DNA of 32,557 bases from Planctomycetota bacterium (GTDB lineage: Bacteria > Planctomycetota > Planctomycetia > JALXBF01). Shown one piece after another: positions 18,010-26,984 of this stretch. Numbering within the stretch: position 1 is the stretch's first letter; the number at the start of each line of letters is the position of its first letter. The stretch lies in contig JALXBF010000190.1 in the NCBI GenBank assembly GCA_026991575.1, positions 1 through 32,557 on the forward strand, in the 5' to 3' direction. The notes beneath the pieces were generated by a model that saw only the letters and a program-made list of their open reading frames with translations, did no database searches and was not told the origin of the DNA. Both the position numbers and the translations under genes were made by a program.

Positions 18010-18162
18010 GGCATGGCAACGTTCTGTTAGACTCTTGGCCGGTACCCTTTATCCTACTGTCTCCCCAAGCAACCGCTGGAGTCGCTTCCCTGGGCGGTGA
18101 CAAGAACTCGGCGGCATCGGCGAGCCACAGCGTGTGTGTGCGACTGAGTGAGGCAGGTATCG

Positions 18163-19872
18163 ATGCGTGGTCATTCCCTGTGCTTGCTCTGCTTCGTGTG
18201 TGCTGCAGGAGCAGCTTCGGTGAGTTCTGCCCAAGAGGTAAGCCTCAGGTTCCGGTCGACCCGAGAGCTGCCGGCCGTTGCACGCAACGGTATGGTAGCC
18301 ACCAGTGAACCGCTTGCTGTCGAGACGGGCCTCGCCGTGCTCAAAGCTGGCGGCAATGCGATCGATGCAGCCATCGCCGCAGGGGCCATGATCGGGCTGA
18401 CCGAACCGATGAGCTGCGGCATCGGCGGTGACCTATTCGCCATCATCTGGAGTGCGCGTGATCAGAAGCTGTACGGGCTGAACGCCAGCGGACGTGCGCC
18501 GAAAGCGGCAACAATCGAGCGTCTTCGCAAGCTCGGCTACGAACACATGCCCGTGCGCGGGCCGTTGAGCTGGACCGTTCCCGGCTGCGTGGACGGTTGG
18601 GCAGAGATGCACCGTCGGTTCGGATCGATGAAATGGTCGGAGCTGTTTCAGCCGGCGATCCGAGCCGCAGAGCAAGGCTTTGTCGTCCGGCCCGTGATCG
18701 CACGCTACTGGCGTAACGCGGAACGACTGCTCAGCCGCTGGCCCTCATCAGCCCGCACGTACCTGGTCGACGGCAAGGCCCCGCGTGCGGGTGATCTGTT
18801 TCGCAATCCTGACCTGGCGCGCACCTACCGGCTGATCGCCGAGCATGGTCCGGAGGCGTTCTACCGCGGGCCGATCGCCCAGCAGATCGCAGCCACCGCC
18901 CGGCAACTCGGCGGCCTGATGACGGTCGCGGACCTAGAAGCTCACCGTTCCACGTGGGTCGAACCGGTTAGCACAACCTACCGTGGCTACACGGTCTGGG
19001 AGTTACCGCCAAACGGCCAGGGCATCGCCGTGCTCCAGATGCTCAACATCCTAGAGGGATTCGATCTGAAACAACTCGGGCACAACAGCGCCGAGTACCT
19101 GCATCTGCTGATCGAAACGAAGAAAATCGTTTTCGAAGATCGGGCACGGTACTACGCTGACCCGGAGTTTGCCGATGTGCCGCTGCAGGCACTCATCTCA
19201 AAACGCTACGCTGCTCACCGCCGCAGGCTGATTGATCCCAGGCGTGCTCGACGCTCGGTCCCGCTAGAGGATCCGCGACTGGTTGTCAGCGACACGATCT
19301 ACATGACCGTTGTGGACAAGGATCGAAACTGTGTGTCGTACATCCAGAGCAACTACTACGGGTTCGGCTCGGGTATTGTGCCCGAGGGGCTGGGCTTCGC
19401 GATGCAAAACCGCGGCGCCCTCTTTGCTCTGGATCCTGAGCACCCAAACCGGCTCGAGCCGGGAAAGCGGCCGTTTCACACGATCATCCCGGCGTTTGTC
19501 ACTAAGGACGGCAAGCCGTGGTTCTGTTTCGGCGTGATGGGCGGCGACATGCAGCCGCAGGGGCAGGTGCAGGTGTTGCTGAACATCATCGAATTCGGTA
19601 TGGATCCGCAGAAGGCGGGCGCCGCACCACGGTTCCGCCACTTCGGCTCCTCGACGCCGCGGGCCGATCATGTGATGACCGACGGCGGCCGCGTGGGCCT
19701 GGAGCGGGGCATTCCCGCCGAGGTTCGCCGCAAACTCGAGGCAATGGGCCATCGGCTCTTGCCCCCCGGCGGCGCATTCGGCGGCTACCAGGGCATCCTC
19801 ATCGACCATGAGCGGGGATTGCTCATCGGAGGCTCGGAGGTTCGTAAGGACGGTCTGGCGCTGGGGTACTGA
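18163..19872 (+). CDS. ggt: Gamma-glutamyltransferase family protein (signal peptide)
   Basis: GGNAIDAAIA, GIGGDLF, LNASGRAP, ELPPNGQG, nucleophile region SDTIYMTVVD, PGKRPFHTIIP, GVMGGDMQPQG, RKDG. Confidence 0.93.
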   Translation: MRGHSLCLLCFVCAAGAASVSSAQEVSLRFRSTRELPAVARNGMVATSEPLAVETGLAVLKAGGNAIDAAIAAGAMIGLTEPMSCGIGGDLFAIIWSARDQKLYGLNASGRAPKAATIERLRKLGYEHMPVRGPLSWTVPGCVDGWAEMHRRFGSMKWSELFQPAIRAAEQGFVVRPVIARYWRNAERLLSRWPSSARTYLVDGKAPRAGDLFRNPDLARTYRLIAEHGPEAFYRGPIAQQIAATARQLGGLMTVADLEAHRSTWVEPVSTTYRGYTVWELPPNGQGIAVLQMLNILEGFDLKQLGHNSAEYLHLLIETKKIVFEDRARYYADPEFADVPLQALISKRYAAHRRRLIDPRRARRSVPLEDPRLVVSDTIYMTVVDKDRNCVSYIQSNYYGFGSGIVPEGLGFAMQNRGALFALDPEHPNRLEPGKRPFHTIIPAFVTKDGKPWFCFGVMGGDMQPQGQVQVLLNIIEFGMDPQKAGAAPRFRHFGSSTPRADHVMTDGGRVGLERGIPAEVRRKLEAMGHRLLPPGGAFGGYQGILIDHERGLLIGGSEVRKDGLALGY

Positions 19873-19993
19873 ACCACCTGGCACGCGCCCGACGCAACGT
19901 GGGCTCGCTCCGCTAGAATCAAACGACAGCAGAGGATCCGTCATTACGGGCCAGGGCTATACCGGGCACCACCAACAGGGGAGGACTCACAGC

Positions 19994-20533
19994 ATGCGTG
20001 CGCGTCGCTACAGCCGTCGTGCCTTCCTGGGTACGCTCGCGGCCGTGGCCGTCAGTGGCTGTGCCGGCTCGAGTGGGCGGATGTTCAACTCTTACCTCGG
20101 CAAAACACCGCCGACACTCCAGGGCCAGTTTACCACCTGGCTCAACGGCGAACCGACCGACTGGCCGGAGCTGAAAGGCAAGGTGGTATTCATCACGTTC
20201 AGCTTCTTGCAGTGAGGGGGGTGCCGCATGTTGCGGCCCCACCTGGTCAGGTGGCACAAGGAATTCTCCAAACAGGGTCTGGTGGTCATCGAAGTCGAAG
20301 ACGGTCGGATCAATAGCCTCTCAGAAGTCCAGAGCCACGCCCAGGAGAATGAGCTCCCGTACGTGATCATCCACGACGGGAACGGGGAGATAACTGCTCG
20401 GTTCGGCATCATGGCTTATCCGTCCGCGTACGTGGTGGACCGTTCGGGGAAGGTGATCTGGGAAGGACATCCGGGCGCGGACCAGGCCGAAAGAGCGATT
20501 CGGCGTGCCCTGCAGGAAGGCACGTCAGGATAG
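19994..20533 (+). CDS. Probable selenoprotein: TlpA/redoxin-family thiol-disulfide oxidoreductase with UxxC motif (TGA 20213-20215 = Sec74), Tat lipoprotein, 179 aa
   Basis: RBS GGGGAGGA, ATG 19994. Reads ...WLNGEP..ELKGKVVFITFSFLQ-TGA-GGC-RMLRPHLVRWHKEFSKQGLVVIEV...FGIMAYPSAYVVDRSGKVIWEG in one frame; the TGA is at the first Cys position of CxxC and hairpins follow it. Confidence 0.85.
20216..20257 (+). promoter_or_regulatory. Candidate bacterial SECIS element
   Basis: Directly 3' of the TGA: GGG-(T bulge)-GCCGCA-TGT-TGCGGC-CCC (20219-20240) and CCACCT-GGTC-AGGTGG (20239-20254); GTGCC (20221-25) can alternatively pair with GGCAC (20253-57). Confidence 0.6.
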
Positions 20534-20710
20534 CAGCACCGGACCGGGACCGGTCAGGATCCGCCACCCCCCCTCTCGCACTGGCAGCACTACCGCACCG
20601 CTGCGCGTCGCAAAGAACCACGGCCGCGATCCGCGCCCGGCCGTAACACTGGTGGATACTTGCCGGTTGTCGGACCAAGCGATGTGTTCACCGCCGACCA
20701 ACGGGAGCGG

Positions 20711-21595
20711 ATGATGCTGGTTGTGTTACCGTGTCTGGATTCAGACGAGATGGCCGCGCAGCGGCGGCGCGAGCTGTGCATCTCGCGCGAGCTGGCAGCC
20801 CACCTCGGCCGCACCGCACTGCAGGCCATCAAGAACGGTTACTACATAACTGACAGCGGTGACCGCGTGGACTGGCACGAGGAGATCGCCAATGCGCGCG
20901 CTCGCAAGATCAGCATTCCGCCCGACGAAGAGCTGCCACCGCCCCCCGGCCACACGTTCGCGGAGACAACCGTGCAGGTCAGCAACGAAACGACCCTCGG
21001 AGCAGCTCGGCGTCTGGTGGACCGAGGGCTGCGCCCGCTCGCGTTGAACTTTGCCAACGGCATCCATCCCGGAGGGGGATTCCTCACGGGTGCACGAGCT
21101 CAAGAGGAAACGCTCTGTCGTTCTAGTGCTCTGTATGCGACACTGGTTGGCGACCCAATGTACGAGGCCCACCGGCAGAGGCCATTGCCGGATTCCACCG
21201 ACTGGGCAATCTACTCGCCCGACGTCCCAGTCTTTCGAACGGATGACGGCAGGACACTGCCACGACCGTGGCTATTGAGTTTTATCACGTGTGCTGCCCC
21301 GTACGCGCCGACCGTCGGTCAGCCCAGGTCAGCGAATCTGCTCAGACAACGGATACACCGCGTCCTGACCATCGCCCGAGCCTACGGGCATGAGACGCTC
21401 GTGCTGGGTGCGTGGGGCTGCGGTGCGTTCGGCAATGACCCGGTGCGCACGGCGCGTGACTTCCGCGCAGCGCTGGAAGGTCCATTCGACGGTGCGTTCT
21501 CCGAGGTCGTCTTTGCAATTGCCGACTGGTCACCCGAGCGGCGCCGCCTCGGTCCGTTCCGGGATGTGTTCGCCCAGCCGGCCGGCAAGCACTGA
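20711..21595 (+). CDS. TIGR02452-family protein (bacterial PARG-like macrodomain ADP-ribose glycohydrolase)
   Basis: LNFANGIHPGGGFLTGARAQEETLCRSSAL (GGG-x-QEE catalytic loop), IYSPDVPVFR, ITCAAP, LVLGAWGCGAFGNDP; GGGAG RBS before ATG 20711. Confidence 0.9.
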   Translation: MMLVVLPCLDSDEMAAQRRRELCISRELAAHLGRTALQAIKNGYYITDSGDRVDWHEEIANARARKISIPPDEELPPPPGHTFAETTVQVSNETTLGAARRLVDRGLRPLALNFANGIHPGGGFLTGARAQEETLCRSSALYATLVGDPMYEAHRQRPLPDSTDWAIYSPDVPVFRTDDGRTLPRPWLLSFITCAAPYAPTVGQPRSANLLRQRIHRVLTIARAYGHETLVLGAWGCGAFGNDPVRTARDFRAALEGPFDGAFSEVVFAIADWSPERRRLGPFRDVFAQPAGKH

Positions 21596-22958: not shown

Positions 22959-24911
22959 ATGGCCGATGCTTCTCTGCTGTTCAGGCGTCTGCGCGCGTTG
23001 TTGTCGACCTCACCACTGATCCGATCCGTCGGCGAACTGCATCACCGCGGCAAAGTCTTCTGGGCCTACGGTCCGGACGTCAGGCTCCGACCGCTGACCG
23101 ATGAGGAAATCGGCCAGCTCCGTGCTCAAGGTAATGTTGCCGAAGACTGGAAGGCCATCTGGGTGCATCCAAGTTTTCGTCCCGATCGTATCCACCAGTG
23201 CCGGATCCTGGGTTGGGCGGTGTTCGGCCCGTTGCGCGGCACGGTTGCTGTTGACGGCGTCCCGCTGCCCACTGGGGTGTATCGGACCACGCTGCGCGAC
23301 TGTGTCCTTGGTCCGGACGTCCTCGTTCAGGACGTGGCGCTGGCTGCCCGCTGCGTACTTGCGCGGCAGGCCGTGTTGTTTCGCTGTGGCACCGTGGTGG
23401 GCGGCTCGGGTAGCTTCGGCAACGGGGCGGTCGTCCATGTGGGATTGACGGCCGGAGGCCGTGAGCTGCCGCTGGTGGCCGAAGCACCGTTCGACGAGCT
23501 AGCGGCTGCAGCTCTGGACGGCAACCGCTCGGCACACGATGAACTGCTGGCACTTGGACGTGAGTATGCCACCCATCTGCGCGCCGACTGCACCGTGCTC
23601 TTGCCTCGCGCCGCTATCCTGCGCAGCGATAAGGTAGAGAACGTGCTACTCGGACCCGGTGCTGTGATCGACGGAGCAGCCCACGTCGCCTCGACAACAC
23701 TACTAGCCGACGAGCACCTGGTTGCGCGCATCGGGCCCGGCTGTATCGTGAGGGAATCGGTTCTGCAGTGGGGTGCACGCGTGACAGACGGAGCCATCGT
23801 CGAGCGGACCCTGGTGGGCGAAGCAGCGACCGTTGCGCGGCTGGCTCGCGTCTGCCACGCCATCATTGGTCCAAACAGCACGCTGCAACAGGGGGAGGCT
23901 ACGTCGGTACTGGTGGGACCCTTCACTGCCATGAACCACGAAGCCCTCCTGATCGCCGCCCTCTGGCCGGACGGCCGCGGTAATGTCAGTGCCGGTGCAC
24001 GGATTGGTTCAAACCACACTGGGAAAGCACCCGATCAAGAGGCCTTTCTGGGTGAGGGGTTGTTCGTGGGGCTGGGTTGCGCGGTGAAGTTCCCGGTGGA
24101 CTTCTCGAAAGCGGCGTATACCCTGGTGGCTGCTGGGGCCTGTCTGCTCCCGCAGCGGGTCGGCTATCCATTCTCACTGATCCTGCCTCCCAAGCACCGG
24201 CCAGCCGGCGTGGCCGAAGGCCTGAACGAGATCATCCCGGGTTGGCTACTGTACGCCAGCCCGTACACCGTGCTGCGCAATGAGCTGAAGTATGCTGGTC
24301 GGAACCGAGCAGTGCACCAGGCGGTTCGGACCGAGCTCTTCGACCTGCGCCTGCTCCGAGCAATGAACGATGCCGTCCGAAGGCTTACGGACTTGGACCG
24401 TGTGCAGGCGGACTACTACACGGAGAAGCATGATCCACTGCTGGGCAAGAACTTCCTCGTTGAAGCGAACCGGCCGCTTGCGGTTGCCGCTTACCGCACC
24501 TGGGTTCGGCGCGCCGCGCTGCGGGCGTTGTGGCAGCTGCTGAAACAGTCATCGGGCTCGGATCTCCAGCAAGTGCTTCTCCGGGCCGCGGCCGATCCGA
24601 CCGTGTCCTGGGCGCTGGAACACGGCTACGTGGATCGGACCATGCTCAGCCGCGATGGACTGGCAGCGGCCCTTCAGGAACTGCTGCGGATCGAACACGA
24701 GATTGCGGTCGCGGTGGAGCAGAGTAAGAGCCGAGAGTATCGCCGAGGCTGCCGTATTATGCCGGACCTGTACGAACAAGTGCACCCGCTGCCTTCCGAC
24801 GACGGTGTGGTGCGGCACTGTTGGCAGCGGGTCCATGAGCTCAGCGACGACGTGACACGTTTCCTGCTCACTCACGGGCTGGCCACGCCCGGCCTGCGCC
24901 AGCGGCGCTGA
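22959..24911 (+). CDS. DUF4954-like protein with left-handed beta-helix repeats
   Basis: N-terminal RPLTDEEIGQLRAQGNVAEDW, hexapeptide-like repeats (IGPGCIVRESVL, IIGPNSTL), VGPFTAMNHEALLIAALWP.G.GNV..GA.IGSNHTG; family recognised from memory. Confidence 0.75.
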   Translation: MADASLLFRRLRALLSTSPLIRSVGELHHRGKVFWAYGPDVRLRPLTDEEIGQLRAQGNVAEDWKAIWVHPSFRPDRIHQCRILGWAVFGPLRGTVAVDGVPLPTGVYRTTLRDCVLGPDVLVQDVALAARCVLARQAVLFRCGTVVGGSGSFGNGAVVHVGLTAGGRELPLVAEAPFDELAAAALDGNRSAHDELLALGREYATHLRADCTVLLPRAAILRSDKVENVLLGPGAVIDGAAHVASTTLLADEHLVARIGPGCIVRESVLQWGARVTDGAIVERTLVGEAATVARLARVCHAIIGPNSTLQQGEATSVLVGPFTAMNHEALLIAALWPDGRGNVSAGARIGSNHTGKAPDQEAFLGEGLFVGLGCAVKFPVDFSKAAYTLVAAGACLLPQRVGYPFSLILPPKHRPAGVAEGLNEIIPGWLLYASPYTVLRNELKYAGRNRAVHQAVRTELFDLRLLRAMNDAVRRLTDLDRVQADYYTEKHDPLLGKNFLVEANRPLAVAAYRTWVRRAALRALWQLLKQSSGSDLQQVLLRAAADPTVSWALEHGYVDRTMLSRDGLAAALQELLRIEHEIAVAVEQSKSREYRRGCRIMPDLYEQVHPLPSDDGVVRHCWQRVHELSDDVTRFLLTHGLATPGLRQRR

Positions 24912-25085
24912 GCGGCCAGGTTAGCCTGCGCGACGACGTGTTCTGATCGCCCGGGAGTGTGCCCCCTCGGCGGCCGGCCTGTGCGTGCCGGCACCGTTCA
25001 GCATCCCCCCTGGGGTAGAATTAACACGATTCCCACATGTTTCGCAGGCCTGGTTTCCGCGCAGCGACTGGGAGCGACCGAACCG

Positions 25086-26984
25086 ATGCCTTTGACGACG
25101 CTGCCTGTCACGAAGGAATTCCTTGACATGCGTTTGACTAAGGTGCCGACGCGGGTCTTCCGCGCCAGCACCGCAGCCAGCCGCTACGTTGCCCGGCTCA
25201 TTGCCGACTTGATCCGAGAGCGGCAGGCTGAGGGACGGCCCTGTGTGCTGGGCCTCGCCACCGGCTCCACCCCCGTGGGCGTCTACCGCGAACTGATTCG
25301 GATGCACCGCGAGGAGGGTTTAGACTTCTCCAACGTGATCACCTTCAACCTGGACGAGTACTATCCGATGGATCCGTCGCGGTTGCAGAGCTATCGCAAC
25401 TGGATGGATCGCGTTTTCTTCAACCACGTGAACATTCGCCCCGAGAACACGCACGTGCCCGATGGTTCGATCCCGCCGGACCAGGTCGAGGAGTACTGCG
25501 AGCGGTACGAGCAGATGATCCAGGAGGCCGGCGGGCTTGATCTTCAGCTGCTGGGCATTGGCCGCACCGGGCACATCGGCTTTAACGAACCAGGTTCCAC
25601 CGTCGACAGCCGGACCAGGCTGGTTACGCTCGATCCGGTAACTCGCAAGGATGCCGCCAGCGACTTCTTTGGTGAAGACAACGTGCCGTTGCAAGGAATC
25701 ACGATGGGCGTGGGCACGATCCTGTCGGCCGGCAAGATCGTGCTGATGGCTTTTGGCGAGCACAAGGCCGCGATCGTCCAGCAAGCGGTGGAGGGGCCAG
25801 TGACCGAGAGTGTGCCGGCCAGCTTCCTGCAGACGCACCCTGACGCTCAGTTCGTGTTGGATGAAGCGGCTGCCGCAAAGCTGACCGAGATCGATACCCC
25901 GTGGCTGGTGGGCTCTGTGGAATGGACTCCGACGCTGGTCAAGAAGGCGATGATCTGGTTGTGTATGCGGGTGAACAAAGCGCTGTTGAAACTGGAGGAT
26001 GACGACCTCCGTAATCACGGCCTTCATGAACTGCTCCGCGAATACGGCCCGGCTCAGCGAATCGCCCAGGACGTGTTCCAGCAGATGATGGCTACGGTCT
26101 GTTTCACGCCGTCCGGTTCGGACCGGCGGCGCATCGTGGTGTTCAGCCCGCACCCGGACGACGACGTCATTAGCATGGGCGGCACGCTGTTGCACCTGAC
26201 GCGGGTCGGGCATGACGTGCACGTTGCGTACATGACCAGCGGGAACATTGCGGTTTTCGACCACGATGTCGAGCGGTACGTGGACTTCGTGCTTCGTTTT
26301 CTCCGTGTCTTTGAGATCCCGGACAAGCGAGCCGCGGAGTTAGCCCGTGACGTGCGTCGGTTCATCGCCCGCAAGAAGCCGGGCGACGTGGACAGCTACG
26401 AGGTCCGGGAGATCAAGACCCTGATCCGGGAGATCGAAGCACGTGCGGCTGCCATGCATCTGGGCGTGCCCGATGAGAACCTGCATTTCCTCCGGCTGCC
26501 GTTCTACGAGACCGGAGCGATTGAGAAGAACCCGGTCACGGAAGCGGACATCGAGATCATCGAGCGGCTGCTTTCCGAGGTGCAGCCCCATGACATCTAC
26601 CTCGCCGGTGACCTTTCCGACCCGCACGGCACGCACCGAGTCTGTGCCGACGCAATCCTGACCGCAGTACGCCGCGGCCGCTACGGGCCTCAGCCACTGA
26701 ACGTCTGGCTCTACCGTGGTGCCTGGCAGGAGTGGGCACCGCACGAGATCGACAAGGCAGTGCCGTTGACGCCCGAGGACCTGCGTCAAAAGCGCAAGGC
26801 TATCTTCATGCACGAAAGCCAGAAGGATGAGGCGATGTTCCCGGGCCCGTATGACGAGCGGGAGTTCTGGGAGCGAGCCGAGGACCGCAATCGGCACACG
26901 GCCGACCTGTACAACCGGCTCGGCTTGCCCGAGTATTACGCCATGGAAGGGTTCGTCCGCTGGACGCCGGACGACGTCCTCTGA
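25086..26984 (+). CDS. nagB: Glucosamine-6-phosphate deaminase fused to a C-terminal PIG-L/LmbE-like domain (long NagB)
   Basis: LGLATGSTP, FNLDEYYP, LLGIGRTGHIGFNEPGS, TMGVGTI; C-terminal FSPHPDDDVISMGG, DPHGTH, YRGAWQEW, HESQKD. Confidence 0.93.
   Translation: MPLTTLPVTKEFLDMRLTKVPTRVFRASTAASRYVARLIADLIRERQAEGRPCVLGLATGSTPVGVYRELIRMHREEGLDFSNVITFNLDEYYPMDPSRLQSYRNWMDRVFFNHVNIRPENTHVPDGSIPPDQVEEYCERYEQMIQEAGGLDLQLLGIGRTGHIGFNEPGSTVDSRTRLVTLDPVTRKDAASDFFGEDNVPLQGITMGVGTILSAGKIVLMAFGEHKAAIVQQAVEGPVTESVPASFLQTHPDAQFVLDEAAAAKLTEIDTPWLVGSVEWTPTLVKKAMIWLCMRVNKALLKLEDDDLRNHGLHELLREYGPAQRIAQDVFQQMMATVCFTPSGSDRRRIVVFSPHPDDDVISMGGTLLHLTRVGHDVHVAYMTSGNIAVFDHDVERYVDFVLRFLRVFEIPDKRAAELARDVRRFIARKKPGDVDSYEVREIKTLIREIEARAAAMHLGVPDENLHFLRLPFYETGAIEKNPVTEADIEIIERLLSEVQPHDIYLAGDLSDPHGTHRVCADAILTAVRRGRYGPQPLNVWLYRGAWQEWAPHEIDKAVPLTPEDLRQKRKAIFMHESQKDEAMFPGPYDEREFWERAEDRNRHTADLYNRLGLPEYYAMEGFVRWTPDDVL

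Follow-up and report, generated by a model that had tools for sequence, protein, structure and literature searches.

Nucleotides 19994–20533 of a 32,557-nucleotide contig from a Planctomycetota bacterium (JALXBF010000190.1, assembly GCA_026991575.1; the window below means this whole stretch of analysed DNA) are very probably one gene for an exported TlpA/ResA/DipZ-C-type oxidoreductase in which the UGA at 20213–20215 is read as selenocysteine (Sec). This is the best explanation of the evidence as a whole. The first-pass annotation of this DNA had joined two adjacent open reading frames (ORFs) into one gene and placed Sec at residue 74, and both proposals are upheld: the Sec/Cys pairing in one alignment column, TGA at that position in 28 relatives, the Sec machinery of the genome and a downstream hairpin are all in favour. 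SECIS elements were not mentioned in that annotation; a conserved candidate is present at 20239–20254. Sequence comparison gives good support to the view that this is a real selenoprotein gene with a SECIS, of a family type that is already known. Features of the gene are listed in Table 1.

Table 1. Positions of the selenoprotein gene and its elements in the window
Feature	Position	Strand	Remarks
Shine-Dalgarno-like GGAGG	19980..19984	+	9 nt 5' of ATG 19994
Whole gene, very probably for a selenoprotein	19994..20533	+	179 codons + TAG; TlpA/ResA/DipZ-C-like thioredoxin-fold protein
Predicted export signal, residues 1–23	19994..20062	+	Twin-arginine SRRAFLG, then lipobox VSGC (Cys23)
UGA, very probably read as selenocysteine U74	20213..20215	+	Putative attacking residue of U-G-G-C, N-terminal end of helix 75–94
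GC-rich competing hairpin right after the UGA	20215..20244	+	Favoured in the minimum-energy fold; UGA+45 MFE −21.7 kcal/mol
TGC, Cys77, putative resolving residue of UxxC	20222..20224	+	Codon invariant in the 23-sequence DNA alignment
SECIS candidate CCACCU-GGUC-AGGUGG	20239..20254	+	6-bp stem, GGUC loop 20245–20248; encodes (P)HLVRW, helix alpha1
Pro143 codon (AYPSAY)	20420..20422	+	P143 nearly invariant (at least 90% in the 40-sequence alignment)

Gene structure and protein fold

The ORF that ends at the TGA and the ORF that opens at ATG 20228 lie in the same frame and are joined by TGA GGG GGG TGC CGC ATG. Readthrough from ATG 19994 yields 179 residues up to a TAG at 20531–20533 and includes the active-site stretch KVVFITFSFLQ-U-GG-C-RMLRPHLVRW; the protein also contains AYPSAYVVDRSGKV, as quoted in the first-pass annotation. 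The best Pfam match of the readthrough protein is AhpC-TSA (PF00578; 8e-15, residues 51–156), which spans the TGA and, with the shared frame, unites the two ORFs in a single gene; Redoxin and Thioredoxin_8 also score above their cut-offs. In the mechanical list of ORFs, the upstream ORF starts at 19808. A start at this ATG was rejected because it overlaps the end (19872) of the gamma-glutamyltranspeptidase gene at 18148–19872 (+). ATG 19994 is the better start because it follows a Shine-Dalgarno-like sequence and because orthologues begin at the equivalent Met. The TGA is seen again in a second assembly, which has zero differences over 19900–20640 but is not independent, since it may derive from the same sample.

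The complete 179-residue thioredoxin fold that the first-pass annotation had read in the translation is recovered by Pfam matches, structure prediction and structure search alike. AlphaFold2, run on the 40-sequence alignment, gives a mean pLDDT of 91.3, with residues 30–179 near 98. In this model, U74 immediately precedes helix 75–94, where thioredoxin-fold enzymes classically have their attacking Cys. From the type of fold, P143 is presumably the cis-Pro residue. The top Foldseek match is the DipZ C-terminal domain (2hyx, 6e-13); ResA, a DsbE, CcmG and Etrx2, a lipoprotein, follow, and searching solved structures by sequence gives a concordant result. Neither half is a domain alone: the first contributes the initial strand and the active site, and the second everything else in the fold.

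A thioredoxin fold with U/CxxC at the N-terminal end of helix alpha1, as the TlpA-like family (cd02966) requires, is thus found in the readthrough protein. NCBIfam equivalogs are not reached (ResA 44 bits vs 170, DsbE 29 vs 123, StoA 27 vs 210), nor is the selenoprotein model NF041054 (WAxxUGC; 18.1 bits vs a cut-off of 300), and no model in the NCBIfam search claims the clade to which the protein belongs. Judged by these profile scores, the U74 protein is a member of the TlpA-like superfamily only and not any named enzyme.

Selenocysteine and cysteine in one column

DNA of relatives was compared at the position of U74. The top three matches in a set of 61 related genomes each carry one TGA; these are the gene of the window itself, a gene in genome G001 (51% identity) and one in G042 (35%). 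The same TGA arrangement occurs in a Planctomycetaceae MAG. Eight metagenome loci, found by scanning with a three-sequence alignment and two search patterns, add five further TGA forms, a duplicate of the G001 gene and two Cys forms; loci found through the one pattern that contained HLVRW are biased by it. Loci from the other metagenome pattern and from a search of 401 genomes of the phylum are free of the HLVRW bias. The latter search gave a match at E≤1e-16 in 48 genomes, with an in-frame TGA in 35 of 57 non-self matches. When the loci of 39 relatives were aligned, the codon at column 74 was TGA in 28, TGC or TGT in nine and AGC in one (L063), and one locus (L066) was unaligned at this column; L023, which is among the 28 TGA forms, was fetched again as L044 and the second copy was not counted. 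The TGA is kept down to about 30% identity, with the frame open on both sides.

Two further kinds of active site were seen among these loci. In the close relative L063 (G140:C47), Ser stands in place of Sec and makes the site SxxC (FSFVG-S-PGC); the hairpin of this locus is only weak. TlpA-like selenoproteins with W-x-x-W-U-G-P-C (L067–L069, L076–L078) form a second, more canonical group that is common in the same phylum.

Protein databases hold the other side of the pairing. An exhaustive profile-free search returned 17,954 relatives at E≤0.001, of which six reach E≤1e-30. The query was aligned with 39 sequences drawn from the best 150 matches and from earlier matches, and 28 rows span column 74. 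CxxC is present in 25 of these rows, with CxxxC in one (P0028), W in one (P0033) and loss of both Cys in one (P0074). P0033 is very similar to the TGA-bearing gene of G042, and its W may therefore represent a TGA translated under another code. Cys thus occupies the column in most full-length homologues, and TGA occupies it in the DNA of 28 relatives. This is the outcome that the first-pass annotation had sought from an alignment of homologues. The half downstream of the TGA is conserved and not decayed, with its nearly invariant residues kept, including P143.

The expectation that gene callers would split the Sec form is confirmed by database entries. P0024 is 73 residues long and ends exactly before U74, and 11 C-terminal pieces start at Met79, of which ten are aligned entries and one is the window's own P0002 (101 residues). 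These fragments are the product of gene callers that split Sec forms.

A conserved SECIS candidate

The hairpin at 20239–20254 begins 24 nt past the UGA, with a spacing of 29 nt between UGA and loop. RNAalifold applied to nine Sec forms returns this helix and nothing else, with 98.1% of pair cells paired. It returns the helix again for 23 Sec forms, in which 94.2% of 138 pair cells are paired and compensatory changes occur in four cells of two pairs. Slid registers pair only 20–57% of cells, and the covariation score was reached by none of 500 column shuffles, a statistic that overstates significance because the relatives are kin. The 23-sequence alignment omits the six W-U-G-P-C Sec forms, in which no HLVRW stretch is present; a downstream hairpin of their own, in a different register, occurs in four of these.

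Individual loci illustrate how the stem is maintained. A C-G pair is replaced by A-U in L042, and in L046 the synonymous Leu change CUG>UUG is paired with AGG>AAG. L054 likewise combines Leu UUG with Lys AAG, and protein fragments of the HLVKW type are P0055, P0057, P0058, P0105 and P0153. In L058 every one of the four codons differs synonymously (CAU CUC GUG AGA), and the stem survives at 7 bp around a CGUG loop. Codons for Arg in the 3' arm are AGG in 16 of 20 cases in the 23-sequence alignment and AGA in one of 20, and the share of AGG among Arg codons is 6% in seven genes of the window. Across the 23 sequences, the second loop position is invariably G and the first is G in at least 90%. 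Part of this hairpin conservation is protein conservation because the Pro-His...Trp codons determine the outer three pairs.

The bSECIS model in Fig. 2 of PMC13188914 has a loop of 3–9 nt, a stem of 4–16 bp, a UGA-loop distance of 16–37 nt and an MFE of ≤−7.5 kcal/mol, with G in the first two loop positions followed by G or U. The candidate lies within every one of these limits, with its 4-nt GGUC loop, 6-bp stem and 29-nt spacing. Its energy is −8.4 kcal/mol with flanks and −7.7 kcal/mol bare, which is marginal against the threshold of −7.5 kcal/mol. Its likeness to the E. coli fdhF SECIS and the bSECIS consensus lies in the small loop that starts with G-G-U and in the short stem inside the coding region. 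It differs from the fdhF SECIS and the bSECIS in that no bulged U is evident in 20239–20254. The loop of the E. coli fdhF SECIS is also about 10 nt nearer to the UGA.

A perfect-stem hairpin that conforms to the model at ≤−7.5 kcal/mol is present in 19 of 29 Sec forms vs none of ten Cys/Ser forms. The other ten Sec forms miss −7.5 kcal/mol in this simple perfect-stem scan, and two of them are without any hairpin of that geometry. The Cys form L055 keeps a weaker 5-bp hairpin of −4.4 kcal/mol. Stability of the single sequence against shuffles shows no excess (z −0.57; z −0.78 for 71 nt; range −0.57 to −1.13), and such single-sequence z-scores do not discriminate in DNA as rich in GC as this. 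The hairpin at 20215–20244 was considered as the SECIS and rejected: RNAalifold finds that it is not conserved in register, and its loop is 13 nt from the UGA, short of the 16–37 nt range. Stems also follow other UGA codons of this genome: that of selD has one at +28 to +44 whose loop is GGU, and that of L085, a second TlpA-like UxxC gene, has one of 6 bp with GGUC in the loop at +28. Taken together, the comparisons support 20239–20254 as a conserved, covarying predicted SECIS.

Selenocysteine machinery and other readings of the TGA

The genome (4.96 Mb, 98% complete, G+C 65%) has the complete set of genes that the first-pass annotation had proposed to look for. All of them score above curated cut-offs, with 559 bits for selA, 383 for selB and 358 for selD; tRNA-Sec reaches 73 bits, and ARAGORN calls it SeC with anticodon tca. 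Clustered in the order selD, selB, selA and tRNA-Sec, they lie within about 5 kb (contig C184:25019–29790; loci L017, L010, L009, L001). The selD gene itself has one in-frame TGA (SCAG-U-AGK). The genetic code is standard, since TGA terminates five of seven neighbouring genes with Pfam support. Five of 13 AhpC-TSA matches in the genome carry an in-frame TGA; those beyond the window gene are at C87:26427–26807, C65:15988–16371, C166:31452–31799 and C67:6017–6283 (loci L080, L081, L085). L080 is a Prx-type TGA gene, L081 encodes a peroxiredoxin that has the motif T-P-G-U and carries an RR signal, and L085 has the motif W-U-P-V-C.

Other explanations of the TGA can be set against this evidence. 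A nonsense mutation of TGC or TGT to TGA might have killed a Cys-type TlpA-like gene, so that the two ORFs are its remains. Cys-type homologues exist and TGC to TGA is one base change, but the same TGA would then have to be explained in 28 relatives to about 30% identity, each of which has an open, conserved downstream frame. The hairpin that conforms to the model is, moreover, found only with TGA forms, and the downstream half retains nearly invariant residues, P143 among them. A pseudogene is highly improbable on these grounds. It is also very unlikely that the UGA is passed by a non-Sec route with near-cognate Trp or Cys, or that it is a real stop between a 73-residue lipopeptide and a separate 101-residue protein. 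The ATG at 20228, shortly after the TGA, would serve such a second protein, and the W in P0033 would fit readthrough by Trp. Neither half folds alone, however, and a separate C-terminal half would be without an export signal; the genome has every component for Sec decoding, the gene has a hairpin of SECIS type, and the W of P0033 may itself be a TGA translated under another code.

That every TGA is read as an amino acid, as in codes 4 or 25, or that this TGA is an assembly error, is scarcely credible, and nothing specific speaks for either idea. TGA ends five of seven neighbours in a genome with a G+C content of 65%, the letters of the second assembly are identical and the TGA recurs in other genomes. 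Reading of the UGA as Sec in a single exported oxidoreductase is thus the explanation that we prefer.

Export, neighbours and proposed function

The N-terminal signal of the selenoprotein scores 18.9 bits with TIGR01409 (TAT_signal_seq; cut-off 16.7), as measured in the window protein and in its orthologue P0024. The lipobox model LPAM_1 of Pfam gives 16.4 bits, which is under its cut-off of 20. RR and lipobox also occur in P0024, L043 and L042, and L023 has a lipobox without RR. The closest relatives keep the lipobox and mostly the RR, more distant ones have an ordinary signal peptide or anchor, and all Sec-type relatives whose N-termini were read start with a signal or anchor. An extracytoplasmic, membrane-tethered location is predicted from these features. 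Its Tat signal and lipobox make it probable that the protein is a periplasmic thiol-disulfide reductase, tethered to the membrane and with U-G-G-C as its active site. By analogy with ResA, CcmG and DipZ-C, it may act as an extracytoplasmic disulfide reductase; its direction of catalysis and its substrate are inferred as well.

A mechanism can be proposed in which each step would follow from the parts described here. A ribosome positioned at the UGA would already have melted the GC-rich stem directly 3' of it, and the freed hairpin at 20239–20254 would then bind SelB carrying Sec-tRNA(Sec), which would deliver Sec. Helix alpha1 would in this way begin with a U74-G-G-C77 active site. Passage across the cytoplasmic membrane would be directed by the Tat signal and lipobox, and Cys23 would tether the exported protein. 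Its selenolate would attack substrate disulfides and Cys77 would resolve the mixed selenenylsulfide; re-reduction would probably depend on a membrane electron carrier of the CcdA/DsbD type. The genome has two DsbD_TM (CcdA/DsbD) matches, whose products could be the electron donors.

Gene order was compared around the selenoprotein gene. No partner gene is conserved beside it across L042, L044, L045, L047 and L024, and none of its neighbours is conserved in a way that points to a substrate. The selenoprotein gene has a gamma-glutamyltranspeptidase gene next to it in two loci, the window and L043 (2311–3270, −), a metagenome orthologue with 68% identity; the orientation differs between the two, and the genes are not adjacent in more distant loci. 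The downstream gene at 20660–21595 (+) encodes a microbial-type poly(ADP-ribose) glycohydrolase domain (PF10021, 3e-40) and is not conserved beside orthologues. PIG-L deacetylase and glucosamine-6-phosphate isomerase-like genes occur within a few kb in the closest relatives (window 22959–26984, L044:3225–4989, L043:3–1412), which amounts to loose synteny only. No RNA run matching the gene is listed among public runs.

Relation to known selenoproteins and thioredoxin-fold enzymes

TlpA-like (cd02966) selenoproteins with UxxC, named "thiol-disulfide isomerase-like protein", have been catalogued since 2005, when four Sargasso Sea sequences were reported (PMC1088965). Table 1 of a 2026 review contains four relevant families, which include the TlpA-like cd02966 UxxC family and the "Prx-like thiol:disulfide oxidoreductase" selenoproteins (PF00578, UxxC/UxxU) (PMC13188914). 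Selenoproteins are also described in Planctomycetes in PMC4807772. The main texts of the BSepDB and deep-Sep papers contain none of the terms TlpA, thiol-disulfide and Planctomyc.

The window protein shares with the "thiol-disulfide isomerase-like" family a TlpA-type fold, Sec as the first residue of UxxC, widespread Cys homologues and a SECIS hairpin shortly 3' of the UGA whose small apical loop contains G, as far as that family is characterized in PMC1088965 and PMC13188914. Compared by description only, the window clade has the motif F-S/G-F-L-x-U-G-x-C...P-H-L-V-R/K-W, whereas the catalogued family has W-x-x-W-U-G-P-C. In sequence and fold, the window clade is nearest to the DipZ C-terminal domain. 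It resembles the Prx-like family in PF00578 and UxxC as these are given in PMC13188914, but its neighbours are DipZ-C, ResA and CcmG and not peroxiredoxins; this comparison, too, is by description. ResA/TlpA-like selenoproteins of NF041054 have the motif U-G-C in place of the U-G-G-C of the window gene, which is not a member of that family.

Solved enzymes offer a second comparison. The fold is shared with DipZ-C (2hyx, 5cyy), ResA (1st9, 1su9), CcmG (3k8n, 3kh7) and Etrx2 (2yp6), with TM-scores on the query of 0.61–0.73. The position of CxxC is also alike, as is the extracytoplasmic, membrane-tethered location, which is predicted for the window protein. All of these enzymes use Cys, and their identity to the window protein is 16–28%. 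Unlike in those solved systems, cytochrome c maturation and Msr genes are absent beside the window gene.

The window clade may be a subfamily without a family model, set apart from the family references by description only. A more specific reading, which we hold tentatively and consider doubtful as a whole, is that proteins with F-S/G-F-L-x-U-G-x-C...H-L-V-R/K-W form a distinct subfamily of Tat-exported, DipZ-C-like selenolipoprotein reductases that is common in the phylum, which is probably Planctomycetota, with a sequence shaped by its SECIS and a tie to gamma-glutamyltranspeptidase. Under this joint reading, a near-invariant GGUC SECIS within the coding sequence of helix alpha1 may dictate HLVRW, and Cys forms, freed from it, may vary there. 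The position beside gamma-glutamyltranspeptidase in the window and in L043 could point to periplasmic glutathione or thiol turnover.

Implications

This finding matters mainly for annotation. Public protein sets contain the gene as two pieces that make no sense by themselves, and dozens of relatives in the phylum are stored likewise. Joining such pieces recovers a selenoenzyme with Sec in its active site and enlarges the tally of selenoproteins in a proteome rich in selenium. The family also shows clearly, by comparison of its members, how a SECIS within a coding region limits the choice of codons as well as the protein sequence.
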